Sequence record: PZ338878.1
Reading direction: 5' to 3' (one strand)
Origin: a phage
DNA: 64,000 nt
Below are positions 12,854 to 28,758 of the stretch, in pieces. A program made the position numbers and the translations under genes. Each line of letters begins with the position of its first letter. The stretch's first letter is position 1. The notes beneath the pieces were generated by a model that did not search any database, was not told the origin of the DNA, and worked only from the letters and a program-made list of their open reading frames with translations.

Positions 12854-13981
12854 ATGAAATACACGATTTATGGTGATATTGTAAGTGTAAATAAAGATAT
12901 GGGCGTGGAATCTAACTACCTTCCACCTGGATTCTATACTGTTAGTCGTGATCCCCTTGGCAATTACTTTTTAAGCCGTGGTAATCTAACAGGTGTACCG
13001 GATGTTCTGTATGGTGAAACAGAAAAACGAGCAAATCACGTTATTCGTACATTCCATCGCCGTAGTGCACAAGGTAAAAACACAGGCTTGCTTCTGACAG
13101 GAACTAAGGGCAGTGGTAAAACTATGTTAGCCAAACTCATTAGTCGTGACCTTGTAGAAGAAGGTATTCCAACTATTATGGTTACTCAAGCCTACAGCGA
13201 TGCTAATTTCATTGAACTTATTAGCAAGATCACCGACAAAGCAGTGATTATTTTTGACGAGTTTGATAAAGTGTATGAGAAGAAACAAGATCAAGAAGCA
13301 CTTCTCACTTTGTTAGATGGTACTGGCAGTGGTAATAAACTGTTTATTCTGACTAAAAACAGTGGTTTTATCTCTGAATTCTTTTTAAATCGTCCTAGTC
13401 GTGTGTTTTATAATTTTAATTATGATAAAATCTCACTAGAAACTATGATTGACTACTTAGATAAAAACCTGGATAACAAAGCACACTTTGATAATTTCCA
13501 AAGACTTTGGGATGTAAGTTTAGAGTTGTCCTTTGATGTGATCCAAGGTATAGTAGAAGAACTTAATTTCTACCCTGATTTATCCTTTAAAGAATGCATC
13601 TCTATGATGGGCGTTTCTTTAGGTGGTGGTAATAAATGGGATATCAGCAGCGTTGTTATTAATGGAAAACTTCAGAAAGTTAGCTGGGTATCTAGTTGGC
13701 ATAACTTCACACCTGCAATCTTTTTAGGTGGTTCGTGCACACTAGACGTGTACTTGTCATCTCCAAGTGATGCAGACTCTAAAGAAGCCCTTGCTAATAG
13801 CTCTTACGTGGTTTTTGATGATGAAGGAGATGCTCGAATTCCATTGAATGCGACAAAAATGAAAGCAGATCTTATTACAGGCGGTAAAATCGTTGTGTTT
13901 AGTGACGATCCAGAAGATTCTTTCCGTATTGTTCTGGAACCAACTATCACCAATGGTGCAACTTTGGCAAGTGTGTTTTAA
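12854..13981 (+). CDS. P-loop (AAA-type) ATPase
   Basis: Walker A GTKGSGKT, Walker B VIIFDEFDK. Confidence 0.7.
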   Translation: MKYTIYGDIVSVNKDMGVESNYLPPGFYTVSRDPLGNYFLSRGNLTGVPDVLYGETEKRANHVIRTFHRRSAQGKNTGLLLTGTKGSGKTMLAKLISRDLVEEGIPTIMVTQAYSDANFIELISKITDKAVIIFDEFDKVYEKKQDQEALLTLLDGTGSGNKLFILTKNSGFISEFFLNRPSRVFYNFNYDKISLETMIDYLDKNLDNKAHFDNFQRLWDVSLELSFDVIQGIVEELNFYPDLSFKECISMMGVSLGGGNKWDISSVVINGKLQKVSWVSSWHNFTPAIFLGGSCTLDVYLSSPSDADSKEALANSSYVVFDDEGDARIPLNATKMKADLITGGKIVVFSDDPEDSFRIVLEPTITNGATLASVF

Positions 13982-14055: not shown

Positions 14056-15453
14056 ATGACAGCACCAAAATCATGGGAACAATATAAAGAAGAATTAACA
14101 CCCCTTGCTAAAAATCACAATATTCAAATCCTGGGTTATGTTGGGGAATGGAAAGGGAGCAAGACTAAACTTAAACTATCTTGCCCTGATCATGGAGAGT
14201 GGGAAAGTACCGTAATCACTAACTTTAAAACTAGAGGCGGTAAATGTTGCCCCGATTGCAATGGTCATAGAAAAGTAACAGAAGAAAAGGAATGTATTTC
14301 CCTTGTTGATGTTGCTAAAGAAAGAGGGTTTACTTTTATAGGTCTTGCCGAGGAGTGGCGAGGTGTACGAACAAAAATTCGCATAATTTGCCCTAAACAT
14401 GGAGAGTGGAACACCACAAATATTATTAGTTTTAGGAATGGACATGGTTGTCCGACATGTGCAAGTAATAAGCCGTTAACATGGGAAACAGAATTACCGA
14501 TCTTGGAAGAGATAGCACAGAAGAAGGGGTATCAAGTGTTAGGGTACGTTGGAGAATGGAAAAGAAATAAAACAAAACTTGATTTGTTGTGTCATTGTGG
14601 TTATAAATGGGATACTACAAGTATTAACAGTTTTAAACGTGGTAGTGGTTGTCCTTTATGTGGGTATAAGAATACAGGTAAGTCACAAACAATATCCGAC
14701 GATCAACATATTGCAGATTTCTTTTCTACTGGTGTCTTCCCTGAAGGCACTATCTTCACTAACACAGGAGCACGGGGGAAAGGATGTGGGCATATTATCT
14801 GGATGGTTGAATGTCCTGTTTGCTCTCATGATGAATATGTTCAAGCAGGTGTTTGCAATGGTAAATTTTACTCTAAAGGATATAACCTTAAACGAGGACA
14901 CATGCCGTGTCGTTGTGGAAACTATCATTATACAGAAGACCAGATCACCTACAAAGTGAGAAAGGAAGTAGAGAGTAAAGGGTATATTTGGGTAGGATGG
15001 ATCAGTAAACCTAGTGCAAAAGGCAAGTTTAAATATTGGTGCAATAAACACGGGGAACAAATTGGAAATGCTGATAGTTTGATACATAGGGGAGCTGGGT
15101 GTCCACAGTGTGCTGGTCATAGTCAACAGCAATTATATATTAATATTGTTAAAGATAATGATATTATAGTTGCTCTTAAGTTTGGTATAGCTAAAGATAG
15201 CGATAGACGATTAAACCGTCAAAATAACCATAATATGTTTTTTATGGAGCGTATTTGTTTATATGATTTTAGCACAGTGAAACAATGTAAGGCTGCTGAA
15301 AGAGCTATAAAGAAAAAATTAAAAACTGGTATTTTAACGGAAAGAGAGTTGAAAGACGGTTATACAGAAACAGTAAGTGTTTCTGATTTGGAAAATCTTC
15401 AAAAAATTATTACACAATATGGTGGCAAGTTAGTATACAGTAAGGAGGTGTAA
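14056..15453 (+). CDS. multi-repeat zinc-ribbon protein with C-terminal T5orf172-like (GIY-YIG-related) domain
   Basis: tandem GEWxGxxTK...CPxHGEW...GCPxC units; C-terminal LKFGIAKDSDRRLNRQ resembles T5orf172 motif. Confidence 0.6.
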   Translation: MTAPKSWEQYKEELTPLAKNHNIQILGYVGEWKGSKTKLKLSCPDHGEWESTVITNFKTRGGKCCPDCNGHRKVTEEKECISLVDVAKERGFTFIGLAEEWRGVRTKIRIICPKHGEWNTTNIISFRNGHGCPTCASNKPLTWETELPILEEIAQKKGYQVLGYVGEWKRNKTKLDLLCHCGYKWDTTSINSFKRGSGCPLCGYKNTGKSQTISDDQHIADFFSTGVFPEGTIFTNTGARGKGCGHIIWMVECPVCSHDEYVQAGVCNGKFYSKGYNLKRGHMPCRCGNYHYTEDQITYKVRKEVESKGYIWVGWISKPSAKGKFKYWCNKHGEQIGNADSLIHRGAGCPQCAGHSQQQLYINIVKDNDIIVALKFGIAKDSDRRLNRQNNHNMFFMERICLYDFSTVKQCKAAERAIKKKLKTGILTERELKDGYTETVSVSDLENLQKIITQYGGKLVYSKEV

Positions 15454-16005
15454 ATGCGGATTACTGATAAGTATGTGTTCTTCTTCTCGGCAAAAGATGA
15501 ATTTAGCAACTGGTATCTATCATCTTTTATTGAACCTTTAGCTCCCAAGTATAATAATTCTATTACAAGTTCTGTTGAATTTACTTGTGTGGAACAATAT
15601 ATGATGTGGAGAAAAGCATGTTTGTTTTATGATTACAACATTGCATCTTCTATTTTAACCGGAGATCTAAGATATACAGGAGAAAAAGAACAGGCATATT
15701 ATAAGCGACTAGGTAGATTAGTTAAAGATTACGATGAAGCTACTTGGACTTCTTTACGGGAGAAGATTGTCAAGCGTGGTTTGTATCTTAAATACACACA
15801 AAATGAAGATCTCAAAAATAAACTTATCGCTTACGCAGATAAGGAGTTCGTAGAGGCAAGCCCTTATGATTCTATTTATGGTATCAAAATGGGGATGTGG
15901 GATCGTGATGTTGAAAACAAGGATCGTTGGAAAGGACAAAATCTTTTAGGAAAATGGCATACAGACCTTGCTGTTTATCTAAAAACACAATCTGATATTT
16001 CCTGA
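15454..16005 (+). CDS. NADAR-family (YbiA-like) protein
   Basis: FFFSAKDEFSNWY and EQYMMWRKA motifs; ATG directly follows upstream stop. Confidence 0.6.
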   Translation: MRITDKYVFFFSAKDEFSNWYLSSFIEPLAPKYNNSITSSVEFTCVEQYMMWRKACLFYDYNIASSILTGDLRYTGEKEQAYYKRLGRLVKDYDEATWTSLREKIVKRGLYLKYTQNEDLKNKLIAYADKEFVEASPYDSIYGIKMGMWDRDVENKDRWKGQNLLGKWHTDLAVYLKTQSDIS

Positions 16006-16224
16006 TATTTTGAAAATTTTTATTTTTATAAAAAGGGGTGTGGGTTTCATGTACGGAAATCCACCCTCTGAATAATATATCCAGAGTAAATATTATTCTG
16101 TACTCTGTTAATAAAGTATTTAATTTGTTTGTTGGACTATGGTATCTGATCTTTAAAAGACATACTATCTCTTAACTACTACTTATAACAGAACAGTAAA
16201 ATCATTTTTATAAAAAGGACAAAA

Positions 16225-16425
16225 TTATTTAAAGTTTTTACAGATTTTTGGCTACAAATTTTGAAAATGAAAAGTTCAAGTTTGGTCAAAATTATTTAAA
16301 GTTTTTGTATGTATTTCTATCCAGATTTTGAAAATGAAAACTTCAATTTTTTAAAAATTCCCCAGTTTATTTAAAGTTTTTTTGCCTTTTTCCGTAGAAA
16401 AATCAAAAATGAAAAGTTCAATTTC
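16225..16425. repeat. three tandem ~70-bp direct repeats
   Basis: TTATTTAAAGTTTTT at 16225, 16291, 16367; TTTTGAAAATGAAAAGTTCAA at 16258, 16325, 16401. Confidence 0.7.
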
Positions 16426-16444
16426 GTGTTTTTATAGGTGTGTT

Positions 16445-16557
16445 AATGAGAATCATTTTCGTTTGTAAATGAGAATCATTATCATTTAACTATGTAAGTG
16501 ATAATCATTCTCAGTAAGAGAATGAGAATCATTAGCAAATGAGAATTTTTCTCATTT
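16445..16557. promoter_or_regulatory. array of Fur-box-like hexamer repeats
   Basis: AATGAGAATCATTATCATT, GTGATAATCATTCTC, AATGAGAATCATT close to Fur consensus GATAATGATAATCATTATC. Confidence 0.45.
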
Positions 16558-16818
16558 ACAGAATAACGCGCAGGGGCGGTGTTTGTCTCGCGCTCCCGTG
16601 TCCCCTCGCCATACAATAAGAATAGCATAACCAACAACAAAAGCAAGCGATTATTTTTATCTTTACATTTCTTTACAAATTTATTTTAGACGAGCTACCG
16701 GCGATCAACCTTCCAACCAGGGCCGCCTGGTATGTTAGCCCCGCCTTTACGCCGTGGGGGTGGCGTTTCCTCTTCTGTATGTAAAACAGTATAAGCCCGA
16801 TCCCTGGGCTTGTCAATA

Positions 16819-17085
16819 TTATTTTTTGTTTTCTTGCCAGGATAGGACACCTAACCAAAAATACATGTCGCCCCGCGCCCCTGGCGGGATCTTGCTTTCC
16901 CCGCCGCCACTGCAAGCCCATAAATAACCGTCAGCGAACGGATCAAAGTGATCTATCTCTTCCACCTTATGATCGCCCAGGTTGAGAACGGTTTCAACCT
17001 TTAAGCCCGTTGCGCTTGCTACCTGGTGCACCGTGCCGCCTTGCCAGCCCAATGATTGCATGAGATGTAAAGGAGTATTTGTCAT
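16819..17085 (-). CDS. hypothetical protein (88 aa) in G+C-richer segment
   Basis: ORF; composition differs from surroundings. Confidence 0.35.
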   Translation of the reverse strand: MTNTPLHLMQSLGWQGGTVHQVASATGLKVETVLNLGDHKVEEIDHFDPFADGYLWACSGGGESKIPPGARGDMYFWLGVLSWQENKK

Positions 17086-17196
17086 GGTATCGCCCTTTCT
17101 TTGATGTGCGCCCTGGTTGGCGCGGTAGAAAGATAATAGCCGTTTCTTTTATAGATAGCAAGCAAAAAAGAAATGAAAAAAAGATTAAAAAAACGG

Positions 17197-17256
17197 TTGA
17201 CGTTCCTCACCTGGTAGCGTAGTATTCATCTTGTCGAGGGGCGGCAATAGTGCCGC
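17197..17256 (+). promoter_or_regulatory. promoter + 5'-UTR hairpin cassette
   Basis: TTGACG N17 TAGTAT; hairpin GGCGGCA-ATAG-TGCCGC. Confidence 0.6.
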
Positions 17257-17280
17257 TCATAACAGAAGAGAGAAATAATC

Positions 17281-17553
17281 ATGGCATCATATAGCGCATC
17301 AATGATCGTAATGGGTATCACTGGTAAACCTATGCGCGGTGGCGGATCTTTCGCTAACATCAACATTGACGGGCGTTTATCCCTGGACGCAGCGATCACA
17401 GTGGCACGGGAAACATTTAAAAAAGAATGTAATTTCAATAAACAAGATTATCTCGGTTTTGCTATTGAAAAAACCGCGCGCTTTGTGGATTATAAAAGCC
17501 CGAAAATGATCGACACTACACTAAAAGCGCAAGATGTAGCGTTTTTGCTTTAA
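17281..17553 (+). CDS. hypothetical protein (90 aa)
   Basis: RBS + ATG after cassette. Confidence 0.55.
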   Translation: MASYSASMIVMGITGKPMRGGGSFANINIDGRLSLDAAITVARETFKKECNFNKQDYLGFAIEKTARFVDYKSPKMIDTTLKAQDVAFLL

Positions 17554-17556
17554 GGT

Positions 17557-17618
17557 TTGACACTGAAAAATAATTGGGTAATATATACGACATAAGGCGG
17601 GGAAATGGTTTCCCCGCC
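17557..17618 (+). promoter_or_regulatory. promoter + 5'-UTR hairpin cassette
   Basis: TTGACA; hairpin GGCGGGGAAATGGTTTCCCCGCC. Confidence 0.6.
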
Positions 17619-27187: not shown

Positions 27188-27202
27188 ATAACATTTCACA
27201 CC

Positions 27203-27221
27203 AGGGCGCACAAAGCGCCCT
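27203..27221 (+). terminator. rho-independent terminator closing the small-gene array
   Basis: AGGGCGC-ACAAA-GCGCCCT + TTCTTTTT. Confidence 0.7.
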
Positions 27222-27433
27222 TTCTTTTTACCTAAATAAAGATGATAGCTTTTACCTATCAAAAACGTTCACCGAAAAAAGTGAATAGATCGCGGTATCG
27301 AGCTAATCAAGGAGCAGATGAACAACCATACCATGAAGATCATAAGGCGTTTACAACGTGTTTTAGACCGCTTATTTTTAATTTCTCCATGTAACTATCT
27401 GGCAAAAACAGCCTTTTTCTTGTCTTTCCTCTT

Positions 27434-27508
27434 AAATGATAATCATTCTTATTTATAGCTGATTATTTATGCAATAAACTGCATAATGCAATAATGATAA
27501 TCATTCTT
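27434..27508. promoter_or_regulatory. two Fur-box-like sites
   Basis: AAATGATAATCATTCTT and AATAATGATAATCATTCTT. Confidence 0.4.
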
Positions 27509-27517
27509 AACTTATGA

Positions 27518-27800
27518 CCATCTAACCTATAAAATAATAAGCTATCTAACTAAATTAAAACTAATTATCTCACCTTTATTTATAATTTACTGTTATTATC
27601 TCATTGATAACCTTATATTAAACAACAATAACTAATATAAATCATTACTAAGCTAAATATAATCTATCTAACCTTTAAAACTATAACTATAATCTATCGA
27701 ATTGTTGCACAAAGTAACTATTAAATTGTTAGTAACATTACTAAATAATTAATATCCTATCTATTTATGATCTAATCTTTACCTTACTATCTATTACCTA
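27518..27800. repeat. iteron-like short repeats in AT-rich non-coding DNA
   Basis: recurrent CTATCTAAC(C/T) / CTATCTATT motifs. Confidence 0.4.
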
Positions 27801-27859
27801 AATAATCATTTCATACCGTAATAATTTCATATAATAATTATAACAAGAAATATAATTAG

Positions 27860-28045
27860 CAAGCGTATCATTAGCAGCCTATGCCGGACACATAGGCGGC
27901 TAATAATAACGCAACTACACACCTCACATAATAACTATCACCGATAGTTATTATCTGTGCTTATGTAGCTTGCAACAATTGCAAGCGCAACAATATACAT
28001 GGTATATTGTATTCCCTTACATTGTTGCGGTGCGTTATTATTAGC
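27860..28045. repeat. cluster of nested palindromes
   Basis: GCCTATG-N7-CATAGGC; ATAACTATC-ACC-GATAGTTAT; GCTTGCAA-CAA-TTGCAAGC; CAATATAC-ATG-GTATATTG; flanking GCTAATAATAACGCA inverted repeats. Confidence 0.6.
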
Positions 28046-28420
28046 TAATGTTTGGAACATTGGCTATAATATAAGCTACCCAATAATAAGTTATGCAATA
28101 ATAAACATAGTGAATAATTACCCTGATGATCATAATGCGCCACCTTCCAGGGGCGCTATGTGAACACAAAGAAATCTTTCTTGTCAAGAAAAATATTACC
28201 ATTATTGCGCAAAATTATTTATATATGAATAGACGGTTTTTCATACTATTGCCCCCCCCAAATTATGCCCCTTTTGTTGGGTACAACTATCCCTATTTGT
28301 TGCAATGTATACCTTATTTGTTGAGCATAGTTATAGCCTATTTGTTGAGCCTACTTTCTTAAAAGCGCAATAAATTAGAATTATCTTGATTTTTAGGGCG
28401 TTTTATAGTATAGAAAATAT

Positions 28421-28439
28421 GCAAATGATAATCATTATC
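28421..28439. promoter_or_regulatory. near-consensus Fur box
   Basis: GCAAATGATAATCATTATC vs consensus GATAATGATAATCATTATC. Confidence 0.5.
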
Positions 28440-28606
28440 AGCTATCTTCCACGGGTAGCACTATTTCACGCAGGATCATTTCATTTGGCAAGGTGTATAT
28501 AGATGTTTAGAAATGCCAAGCCATTGATTTGCTTAGAATTTATCTGTTTTGTTGGGAATAGTGCCTTTATTGTCCAGAAAATAATCAAAAGTCTTATAAG
28601 TCATTG

Positions 28607-28640
28607 AATGATAATGCAAATGATAATAATTCTCATTGAT
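28607..28640. promoter_or_regulatory. Fur-box-like repeat
   Basis: GAATGATAATGCAAATGATAATAATTCTCATTGAT. Confidence 0.4.
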
Positions 28641-28691
28641 ATTTGAGGGGGACGGTCGGCAGAAATCGGGGGGCGCTGAAAATCGCGTTAA

Positions 28692-28758
28692 NNNNNNNNN
28701 NNNNNNNNNNNNNNNNNNNNNNNNNNNNNNNNNNNNNNNNNNNNNNNNNNNNNNNNNN
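28692..28758. other. assembly gap (67 N)
   Basis: run of N in sequence. Confidence 1.

Follow-up and report, generated by a model that had tools for sequence, protein, structure and literature searches.

A three-unit repeat array beside Fur-box-like sites in a phi92-like phage: a probable protein-binding array and candidate replication origin

INTRODUCTION

What is the role of three tandem repeats of about 70 bp that lie in non-coding DNA of a phage, next to a group of sites resembling boxes for the host protein Fur? The question is raised by positions 16,225 to 16,425 of a 64,000-nt stretch of sequence record PZ338878.1 (hereafter the window, to which all coordinates refer). Best matches of segment 15400–17600 (megablast, 142 phage records) were to Justusliebigvirus at 97–98% identity, e.g. 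phages inny, Antha and UAB_1, and on this sequence evidence the window is from an Escherichia coli phage of that genus (phi92-like, Stephanstirmvirinae). Until now the array was known only as a bare 'repeat_region', annotated with no stated function in the GenBank records of inny and alia. The genome paper of these two phages (PMC7552041) does not discuss the repeat, and a literature search found neither a function assigned to it nor a comparative analysis. A reading of the window made from its letters alone (hereafter the sequence-only reading) had proposed binding-site iterons, belonging to an origin or a regulator, rather than a product of slippage. Here, the array is compared within and between two phage subfamilies. 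The comparison indicates that it is probably a specific DNA–protein array and suggests, more tentatively, that it may be part of a replication origin.

RESULTS

Three units, each with two boxes

The array consists of three units whose starts are 67 and 75 bp apart and which are 71–72% identical over 79 nt (repeat-family search, three copies). No ORF (open reading frame) of at least 40 aa is present in 16176–16481. Box A, TTATTTAAAGTTTTT, occurs in exact copies at 16225, 16292 and 16367, and box B, TTTTGAAAATGAAAAGTTCAA, starts 34 bp after the start of box A in all three units. The full 21-mer of box B is matched exactly by unit 1, with one mismatch by unit 2 and with three, at the 5′ end, by unit 3; its core, AAAATGAAAAGTTCAA, was found at 16264 (no mismatch), 16331 (one) and 16406 (none). 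In the window, box B is an inverted repeat of the form TTGAA-N9-TTCAA. Box B of unit 3 ends at 16421, and 26 bp further on, at 16447, the first Fur-like box begins. The description given by the sequence-only reading, namely three tandem non-coding repeats of about 70 bp, two conserved blocks at fixed spacing and a position directly upstream of a Fur-like array, was therefore borne out. A check with Tandem Repeats Finder (TRF), which that reading had proposed, agreed in part: a tandem repeat was reported (16220–16350, period 67, 81% matches), but with only 2.0 copies, an undercount caused by the 8 extra bp of the second interval.

A 15-mer seen at least three times, as in 16150–16450, appeared in only two of 2,000 dinucleotide-preserving shuffles (mean 7.8), both times as overlapping homopolymer words. 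Given the second block at fixed offset, a chance origin of the array is negligible. Neither box occurs elsewhere in the window or anywhere else in the 148,885-bp genome of the relative VEcB (OZ035773.1). Segment 16145–16219 resembles a possible degenerate fourth unit, with ATCTTTAAAAG at 16149, exactly 75 bp before box A of unit 1, and the 15-mer ATTTTTATAAAAAGG is present at both 16022 and 16204; neither the possible fourth unit nor this pair is conserved in other lineages.

Conservation among Stephanstirmvirinae

Close relatives were compared using 16180–16440 (261 nt) as query, which matched 62 phage records. In 57 of these the whole query aligned without gaps at 97–99% identity, and all 57 carry three units, so the copy-number variation for which the sequence-only reading had suggested looking was absent. 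Five distant Stephanstirmvirinae (Citrobacter phage Tr1 and Klebsiella phages KP2025, FKP3, phi1_175008 and KP13-26) are about 70% identical at the locus and also keep three units, with box A starts 66–67 and then 75–76 bp apart. Across the Stephanstirmvirinae lineages every comparison gave 89% identity for box A, as opposed to only 45–52% for the spacer between the boxes; the spacer of unit 3 is partly shared with unit 3 of other lineages (..ACTTTTC..). Each lineage has its own version of box B, uniform within a genome: the paralogs of the window are 83% identical, versus 61% for orthologs in other lineages. As read from the sequences, all of these versions are inverted repeats, that of the Klebsiella phages being GAAATTT-N-AAATTTC. 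These sequence comparisons show box B to change in concert within lineages. Phapecoctavirus tuntematon carries a related array with a degenerate middle unit and different spacing.

A fixed geometry combined with free spacer sequence suggests a DNA–protein architecture. Furthermore, the Fur boxes, which are sites for a host protein, stay constant across both subfamilies whereas the boxes of the units diverge, the pattern expected of a co-evolving reader encoded by the phage.

Neutral tandem duplication by replication slippage, with no function, would account for a tandem repeat in non-coding AT-rich DNA. It is extraordinarily improbable here, since copy number is invariant in the 57 relatives, since unit number, spacing and box A are kept across lineages with diverged spacers, and since a positional equivalent exists in a second subfamily (see below). 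Judged by its constant copy number and the limited overall identity of its units, the array is not a slippage-type repeat (variable-number tandem repeat). That part of the proposal of the sequence-only reading stands: the constant copy number and the retention of spacing and box A point to a constrained, binding-site-like element. A period of 67–75 bp with two boxes per unit is, however, unlike that of classical 18–22-bp iterons.

A positional equivalent in Vequintavirinae

With the segment on the right of the repeats (16540–17260) as query, 240 records were retrieved, among them Vequintavirinae of six genera. Seven Vequintavirinae were read (4MG, EC152, CR3, POP15, Av-05, Erwinia phage pEp_SNUABM_01 and Klebsiella phage BIS47), and all seven have three units adjoining the Fur boxes, spaced by 74–78 and then 63–67 bp. 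The sequence of their units differs (GGTTCTCGATCG..TTTTCAAAATCGAGATCGTATTT..GAAAAAATTTTT, with two GATC per unit), and the same two inter-unit distances, about 67 and about 75 bp, occur in reverse order between the subfamilies. The best match between subfamilies pairs box B with the reverse complement of the Vequintavirinae core, TTTTGAAAA(C/T)GAAAAGT. The reversed distances and the reverse-complement match hint that the orientation of the array with respect to the Fur boxes may be opposite in the two subfamilies.

Two candidates for a protein common to both subfamilies were rejected. The gene upstream of the module in Vequintavirinae, considered as the source of a shared binding protein, lacks both a Pfam domain and a homologue in the phi92-like genome, and the small leftward ORF, considered as a shared regulator, is of an 88-aa type and a DUF7170 type that are unrelated. 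Vequintavirinae also carry GAAATSG-type repeats and two to three copies of TTATCTCAAA between their GATATTT repeats and the array.

Base composition and predicted curvature

The GC content of the array is 22.3%, versus 37.1% for the window, and the two 300-bp stretches of lowest GC in the VEcB genome are the array and the AT-rich region before the terminal repeat. Curvature was predicted with a dinucleotide wedge model using approximate Bolshoy–Trifonov parameters, so that the numbers are approximate too. In this model no other 210-bp stretch of the window is as curved as 16220–16430, and in the 148.9-kb VEcB genome the array ranks first as well, with a value of 39.2 where the second-highest peak reaches 33.0 and the genome averages 18.8. 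In Tr1, KP2025, FKP3 and KP13-26 the curvature maximum of the locus falls in the array or at most about 40 bp from it. The arrays of phi1_175008 and of the Vequintavirinae are not especially curved, the adjoining upstream segment being more so. High modelled curvature is hence a mark of this lineage and not a universal property.

A curvature that is the highest predicted and a GC content nearly the lowest of the genome, at a site between convergent transcription units, could point to a structural element or nucleoid-protein sink. Such an element would bind H-NS, Fis, IHF or gyrase, for example relieving supercoiling where transcription converges, with no dedicated phage protein. Low-specificity binding, however, fails to explain an exact 15-mer in three copies, the high identity of box A and the concerted change of box B; moreover, the arrays of the Vequintavirinae and phi1_175008 lack marked curvature and no IHF consensus is present. 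A role of this kind is quite improbable.

A conserved module around the array

In every lineage read, from both subfamilies, the array is embedded in the same order of elements. The left part comprises the stop of the upstream gene, two to four (T)GATATTT repeats, 150–250 variable bp, the three units and an A5–6/T5–6 tract. The right part comprises one to five Fur boxes, CAGAATGAC with a GC hairpin, TCTTTACAnnTCTTTACAAA, about 100 nt of conserved GC-rich sequence and a leftward TTGACA-type promoter. The elements of the window are listed in Table 1.

Table 1. Features of the array and its surroundings in the window
Feature	Position	Strand	Basis and remarks
Left module edge, CTGATATTTC × 1.9, (T)GATATTT motif	15992–16010		TRF; overlaps stop of NADAR/YbiA-like gene
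GC-rich terminator-like hairpin, T-run on minus-strand side	16030–16075		Read from sequence; between rightward NADAR gene and leftward module
Repeat unit 1	16220–16286		Box A 16225–16239, variable spacer, box B 16259–16279
Repeat unit 2	16287–16361		Box A 16292–16306, box B 16326–16346 (1 mismatch); 3′ end 8 bp longer
Repeat unit 3	16362–16428		Box A 16367–16381, box B 16401–16421, left arm degenerate
Four to five Fur-box-like sites, TGAGAATCATTATCA and similar	16441–16560		Right of the repeats
GC hairpin AGGGG..CGG..loop GAGACAAACACC..CCG..CCCCT (minus strand), preceded by conserved CAGAATAAC	16572–16606		Read from sequence
Candidate promoter P2	16619–16646	−	Weak in window, TTGCTT-16-TATTCT, by eye; below scan threshold
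Tandem TGTAAAGA repeats = GTAAA-N5-GTAAA	16660–16679	−	Nearly invariant in module alignment
Candidate structured non-coding RNA, about 100 nt	16680–16781	−	Begins at predicted P1 start site
Sigma-70 promoter P1, TTGACA-17-TATACT, 11/12	16788–16816	−	Promoter scan (prediction)
88-aa leftward ORF	16819–17085	−	phi92 gp224 homologue, PHROG 19316, no known domain; first element of leftward-transcribed island

At the left edge, two to four (T)GATATTT(G) copies were found at the same place in 13 of 13 other lineages read, whatever the upstream gene. The hairpin that follows in the window may act as a terminator, as inferred from its sequence; a simple terminator scan did not call it.

To the right of the array, one to five Fur boxes occupy the same position in every lineage read. 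In the Vequintavirinae the last of them exactly fills the gap between two plus-strand hexamers, TTGAAT and (C/T)AGAAT, that are 18 bp apart, an arrangement typical of promoters repressed by Fur. The corresponding rightward candidate (TTGAAT-18-CAGAAT), which Fur would occlude, is poor in the window, where the −35 reads GCAAAT. Fur-box matches with at most three mismatches number 29 in the window versus 5.8 expected. Strong boxes also occur at 27437 and 27495, in the AT-rich region before the terminal repeat, and at 28426 and 28621, inside the terminal repeat, with a perfect TGATAATCATTATCA at 28426.

The hairpin beyond the Fur boxes has a conserved loop, GAGACAAWCACC (minus strand), and stems that differ yet pair, e.g. 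GCGGG/CCCGC and CCCGG/CCGGG in CR3, a covariation judged by eye with no scoring tool. It lies between the Fur boxes and P2, where the rightward Fur-occluded promoter and the leftward P2 would converge. P2 is found just downstream of GTAAA-N5-GTAAA and points to the Fur boxes and the repeats. In relatives, scans recovered it as TTGATC-16-TATTAT with an extended −10 in KP2025 and 4MG, and as TTGCAA-17-TATATT in CR3. The GTAAA-N5-GTAAA motif, which is TCTTTACAnnTCTTTACAAA read on the minus strand, stands at the same spot in 12 of 13 lineages; we take it to be the published CpxR recognition consensus, and on sequence it is a candidate CpxR site.

The position and quality of P1 are conserved in all lineages while its spacer is free: it scores 12/12 in KP2025 and reads TTGACG-17-CATAAT in CR3 and TTGCAA-17-TATATT in 4MG. 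The segment downstream of it, a candidate non-coding RNA (ncRNA), is 83–88% identical across genera of the Vequintavirinae and Stephanstirmvirinae while its flanks cannot be aligned, with 77% mean column identity in the alignment. One of its stems shows compensatory changes (CCCC:GGGG, CCAA:TTGG, CCAG:CTGG), as read from the sequences; RNAalifold support on a MAFFT alignment was weak. A pseudoknot with the CGCC:GGCG stem is possible. An Rfam search returned only sub-threshold miRNA and ohsC noise on the Fur array and ncRNA region, and nothing on the repeats. One GenBank record calls the segment tRNA-Ile, but no tRNA was identified by ARAGORN. The minus strand is G-rich over 16500–17100 (GC skew −0.09 to −0.17), and no minus-strand terminator was predicted between P1/P2 and the array.

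Regulation or RNA as alternatives

The elements of the module would also suit an operator or architectural array with no replication role. In such a case the units would bind a phage regulator or bend the DNA, switching P1, P2 and possibly the rightward Fur-occluded promoter, and thereby control the ncRNA and the leftward island in the course of the early-to-middle transition. The array is indeed embedded in a dense regulatory region (Fur boxes, the CpxR-type tandem, P1 and P2), the palindromic box B resembles the operator of a dimeric repressor, curved AT-rich DNA is typical upstream of regulated promoters, and the last Fur box of the Vequintavirinae has the classic Fur-repressed layout. However, none of the units overlaps a promoter, the nearest predicted start site being 100–330 bp away; they contain no conserved pair of sigma-70-like hexamers, and the rightward promoter is poor in the window. 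Conservation to the base pair of three sites at 67/75 bp would also be hard to explain for a remote operator. On balance we consider this role, the main rival to that of an origin, somewhat unlikely.

Alternatively, the repeats could act as RNA, as the 3′ part of a long leftward transcript from P1 and P2, possibly controlled by Fur or CpxR. They would then provide A/U-rich binding or processing sites (e.g. for Hfq, ProQ, RNase E or a phage RNA-binding protein) or a decoy. Two conserved promoters aim into the array with no predicted terminator before it, and beyond it the hairpin at 16030–16075 has its T-run on the minus-strand side. There is also a precedent in the relative phiTE, where non-coding tandem repeats, pseudo-ToxI, serve as an RNA decoy (PMC3475682). 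Like the array, these are non-coding tandem repeats in an rV5-like myophage, but they have 36-nt units in 1.5 copies that expand under selection, whereas the array has a fixed copy number, 67–75-bp units and no ToxI similarity. A ToxI-like identity was rejected on the grounds of its different period, locus and behaviour and the lack of an Rfam match. As for an RNA function in general, inspection revealed no conserved hairpin or covariation in the units, the spacers are unrelated between units and lineages, and no Rfam family matches the repeats. An inter-unit distance kept within 1 nt while the spacer is free would be unusual for an unstructured RNA, and the reversed distances and reverse-complement core match of the Vequintavirinae suggest orientation independence, a misfit for a strand-specific RNA. 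A role as RNA is unlikely.

The module and the genome end

The window spans the physical genome end or junction, since the 343-bp direct terminal repeat annotated in phi92 matches 28349–28691; a run of 67 N (28692–28758) directly follows this copy. The module is present in phages with short direct terminal repeats, phi92 and BME3 (PMC12210895), and also in phiTE and PVP-SE1, relatives that are reported to be circularly permuted (PMC3475682). Its presence in both packaging types indicates that the module is independent of packaging mode.

The injection-stop region of phage T5 is a gene-free stretch of about 1–2 kb with several repeat families, sites for host DNA-binding proteins and DnaA boxes, about 8% from the genome end. 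The module is likewise gene-free and rich in repeats, has host-protein sites and, in phi92, places the array about 11.6 kb (7.8% of the genome) from the right terminal repeat. It could accordingly be imagined as a DNA-entry or packaging signal, either a T5-like injection stop or a terminase recognition site, although its host-protein sites are Fur boxes, not the DnaA boxes of T5. We know of no report of two-step injection for this phage group. Such a signal is highly improbable: the array is 12 kb from the 343-bp terminal repeat (PMC12210895), and the module is kept in circularly permuted relatives with no fixed end (PMC3475682). An identity as terminus, pac, cos or terminal-repeat boundary was rejected on the same evidence. 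The starts of database records near the array are arbitrary cuts, as shown by EC152, whose sequence continues across the record ends.

Other identities considered

Tandem sigma-70 early promoters of the T7 A1–A3 type were rejected, as the units share no conserved hexamer pair. Candidate hexamers fall in the variable spacer, and there is a single weak minus-strand match, in unit 2; canonical early promoters of the phage are found elsewhere, e.g. at 17197–17225 and 17557–17584. The sigma-28 (FliA) consensus is TAAAGTTT-N11-GCCGATAA. Box A contains TAAAGTTT but GCCGATAA is absent, and the −10 position falls in unconserved spacer in all units and lineages, so a sigma-28 promoter was discarded. A sigma-54 promoter was unsupported when checked by eye. 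A T4-type late promoter (TATAAATA-like −10) was also dismissed: the reverse complement of box A contains TTTAAATA, which occurs six times in the window; the array accounts for three of these, and gene starts are not enriched for the word.

Derivation from a host or plasmid found no support, since no match was obtained in E. coli genomes and Moraxella plasmids gave only matches of the size of a Fur box. A scan of IMG/VR for TTATTTAAA-N57–58-TTATTTAAA returned 120 loci, all of them chance occurrences in AT-rich contigs and none with the module. GC skew was of no use as an origin locator, as the turning points in VEcB coincide with changes of gene orientation only. Skew analysis likewise failed to locate the origin of rV5 (PMC3606486), whose genome map shows a gene-free 'non-coding' box.

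Genomic setting

The array sits within a rightward gene block (11.3–39.8 kb), in a 1.27-kb gene-free stretch between the NADAR/YbiA-like gene (15454–16005) and a rightward gene at 17281, and is flanked by convergent transcription units. Further upstream, 14056–15453 encodes a 465-aa homing-endonuclease-like protein with five CapR-homology repeats and T5orf172/GIY-YIG-like and zinc-finger matches. The length of this ORF varies in close relatives (390 aa in inny), which suggests a mobile or fast-changing gene just upstream of the module.

A 375-aa AAA+ ATPase of a kind common in large phages is encoded at 12854–13981 and labelled 'DnaC' or 'replication protein' by some sources. Weak profile matches to Hda, DnaC, IstB and Orc, all below cut-off, had suggested an initiator, a role that was rejected on the evidence of its fold. 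In the AlphaFold model (pLDDT, predicted local distance difference test, 89) a classical-clade AAA+ core is preceded by an N-terminal beta domain and followed by a beta-rich domain at the C terminus; the closest structural matches are Bcs1, proteasomal Rpt, FtsH and NSF, not DnaA, Orc or DnaC. Judging from this model, there seems to be no basis for the replication-loader label.

To the right of the module, at 17085–17281, many close relatives including phi92 (gp225) and inny are about 257 bp longer, the window phage missing a small gene. A second large gene-free and very AT-rich region (27190–28350; down to 21% GC in a relative) precedes the terminal repeat and is rich in short repeats (ctatctaac, taatctatc and others) as well as Fur boxes.

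DISCUSSION

The boxes are unique in the genome, fixed in number, spaced to the base pair, palindromic and concerted in their changes, separated by free spacers and set in DNA of extreme AT content and curvature. Together, these traits argue for a stereospecific DNA–protein assembly and against an RNA element or a neutral repeat, and the array is probably a specific DNA–protein array. The promoters and the structured G-rich transcript aimed at the AT-rich array, and the persistence of the module across subfamilies irrespective of flanking genes and packaging mode, are best accommodated by a transcription-activated origin. That the phased array is bound by one or more phage-encoded proteins and serves as such an origin is possible, with a likelihood that we place somewhat below even.

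The proposed mechanism would be as follows. The three units would be cis-acting, helically phased bipartite binding sites (box A plus the palindromic box B) on AT-rich curved DNA, on which one or two co-evolving phage-encoded DNA-binding proteins would assemble into a wrapped nucleoprotein complex. This complex would mark and open the replication origin of the phage. Leftward transcripts from P1, also the source of the structured RNA, and from P2 would enter the AT-rich array, much as T4, T7 and ColE1 origins are activated by transcription. Between promoters and array, the Fur boxes and possibly the CpxR-type site would act as gates through which the iron or envelope state of the host controls this transcription. 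From sequence we infer all of these steps, namely binding of protein to the boxes, the identity of the binder, transcription reaching the array and the start of replication here.

Comparison with known origins provides partial parallels. Iteron origins with bending, such as oriLambda, with four O-protein iterons and an AT-rich region, and the iteron origins of plasmids, share with the array phased direct repeats unique in the replicon, static curvature from A/T tracts, a very AT-rich setting (here 22% GC with the top modelled curvature) and a repeat sequence that co-varies with lineage. The origins oriF and oriG of T4 (middle promoter plus unwinding element), the primary origin of T7 (tandem promoters plus AT-rich DNA) and ColE1 RNA II share conserved promoters that fire into an AT-rich, readily melted segment, here the predicted P1 and P2 (recovered in KP2025, 4MG and CR3), and a structured G-rich upstream transcript, here a candidate. 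The only hint toward a persistent RNA–DNA hybrid is the G-rich minus strand. Unlike in these origins, the promoters of the array are 200–400 bp off, with Fur boxes between, and the T4, T7 and ColE1 origins themselves have no three-unit binding array. Outside replication, the rrnB P1 promoter, with its UP element and three Fis sites, likewise presents three phased sites on curved AT-rich DNA by a regulated promoter region. However, no promoter abuts the array, and its boxes do not match Fis and differ between phages of the same host.

Several observations weigh against an origin with dedicated phage binders. Compared with iteron origins, a unit of 67–75 bp with two boxes is unlike the classical 18–22-bp iteron, its period being far longer. 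Also in contrast to those origins, no initiator gene (Rep, O or DnaA-like) adjoins or overlaps the array, the neighbours encoding the NADAR, CapR/T5orf172 endonuclease-like and AAA+ ATPase proteins. DnaA and IHF sites are missing too, with no TTWTNCACA, no TTATCCACA within one mismatch and no WATCAANNNNTTR in any Stephanstirmvirinae module. To our knowledge, Fur boxes have no role at replication origins. P2 is weak in the window itself, and the arrays of phi1_175008 and the Vequintavirinae are not outstanding in curvature. Local alignment of the units of the two subfamilies gave scores within the range of shuffled sequences, hence no statistically supported homology between them, and the gene upstream of the module differs between the subfamilies.

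On the basis of the sequence comparisons, what is new here is a three-unit architecture kept in Stephanstirmvirinae, with a positional equivalent in Vequintavirinae, a strict geometry and a concerted box B. Also new are the rank of the array as the most curved predicted stretch of the genome and its place in a larger non-coding module that also includes Fur boxes, a covarying hairpin, a CpxR-type site and a candidate ncRNA. A wider proposal, which as a whole is distinctly unlikely, is that the 1.2-kb module would be a host-state-gated switch of replication or development common to all rV5-, PVP-SE1-, phAPEC8- and phi92-like phages. Transcription from P1 and P2 across a wrapped three-site array would fire an origin or flip a switch of convergent promoters, the Fur (iron) and CpxR-type (envelope stress) gates would let a strictly lytic phage time its replication, and the RNA of about 100 nt would represent a new ncRNA family, acting as primer or regulator.

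Myophages of the phi92, phAPEC8, rV5 and PVP-SE1 types are widely used in phage therapy and biocontrol collections, and the array, as a unique 210-bp element, is a precise and testable candidate for the unmapped origin and early control of this group. If it were an origin or master switch, it would be needed for engineering such phages, as in minimal genomes or conditional replication, and it could show how a lytic phage reads the iron status of its host. If dispensable, it would still illustrate clearly how strongly geometry can be constrained in the non-coding DNA of a phage.

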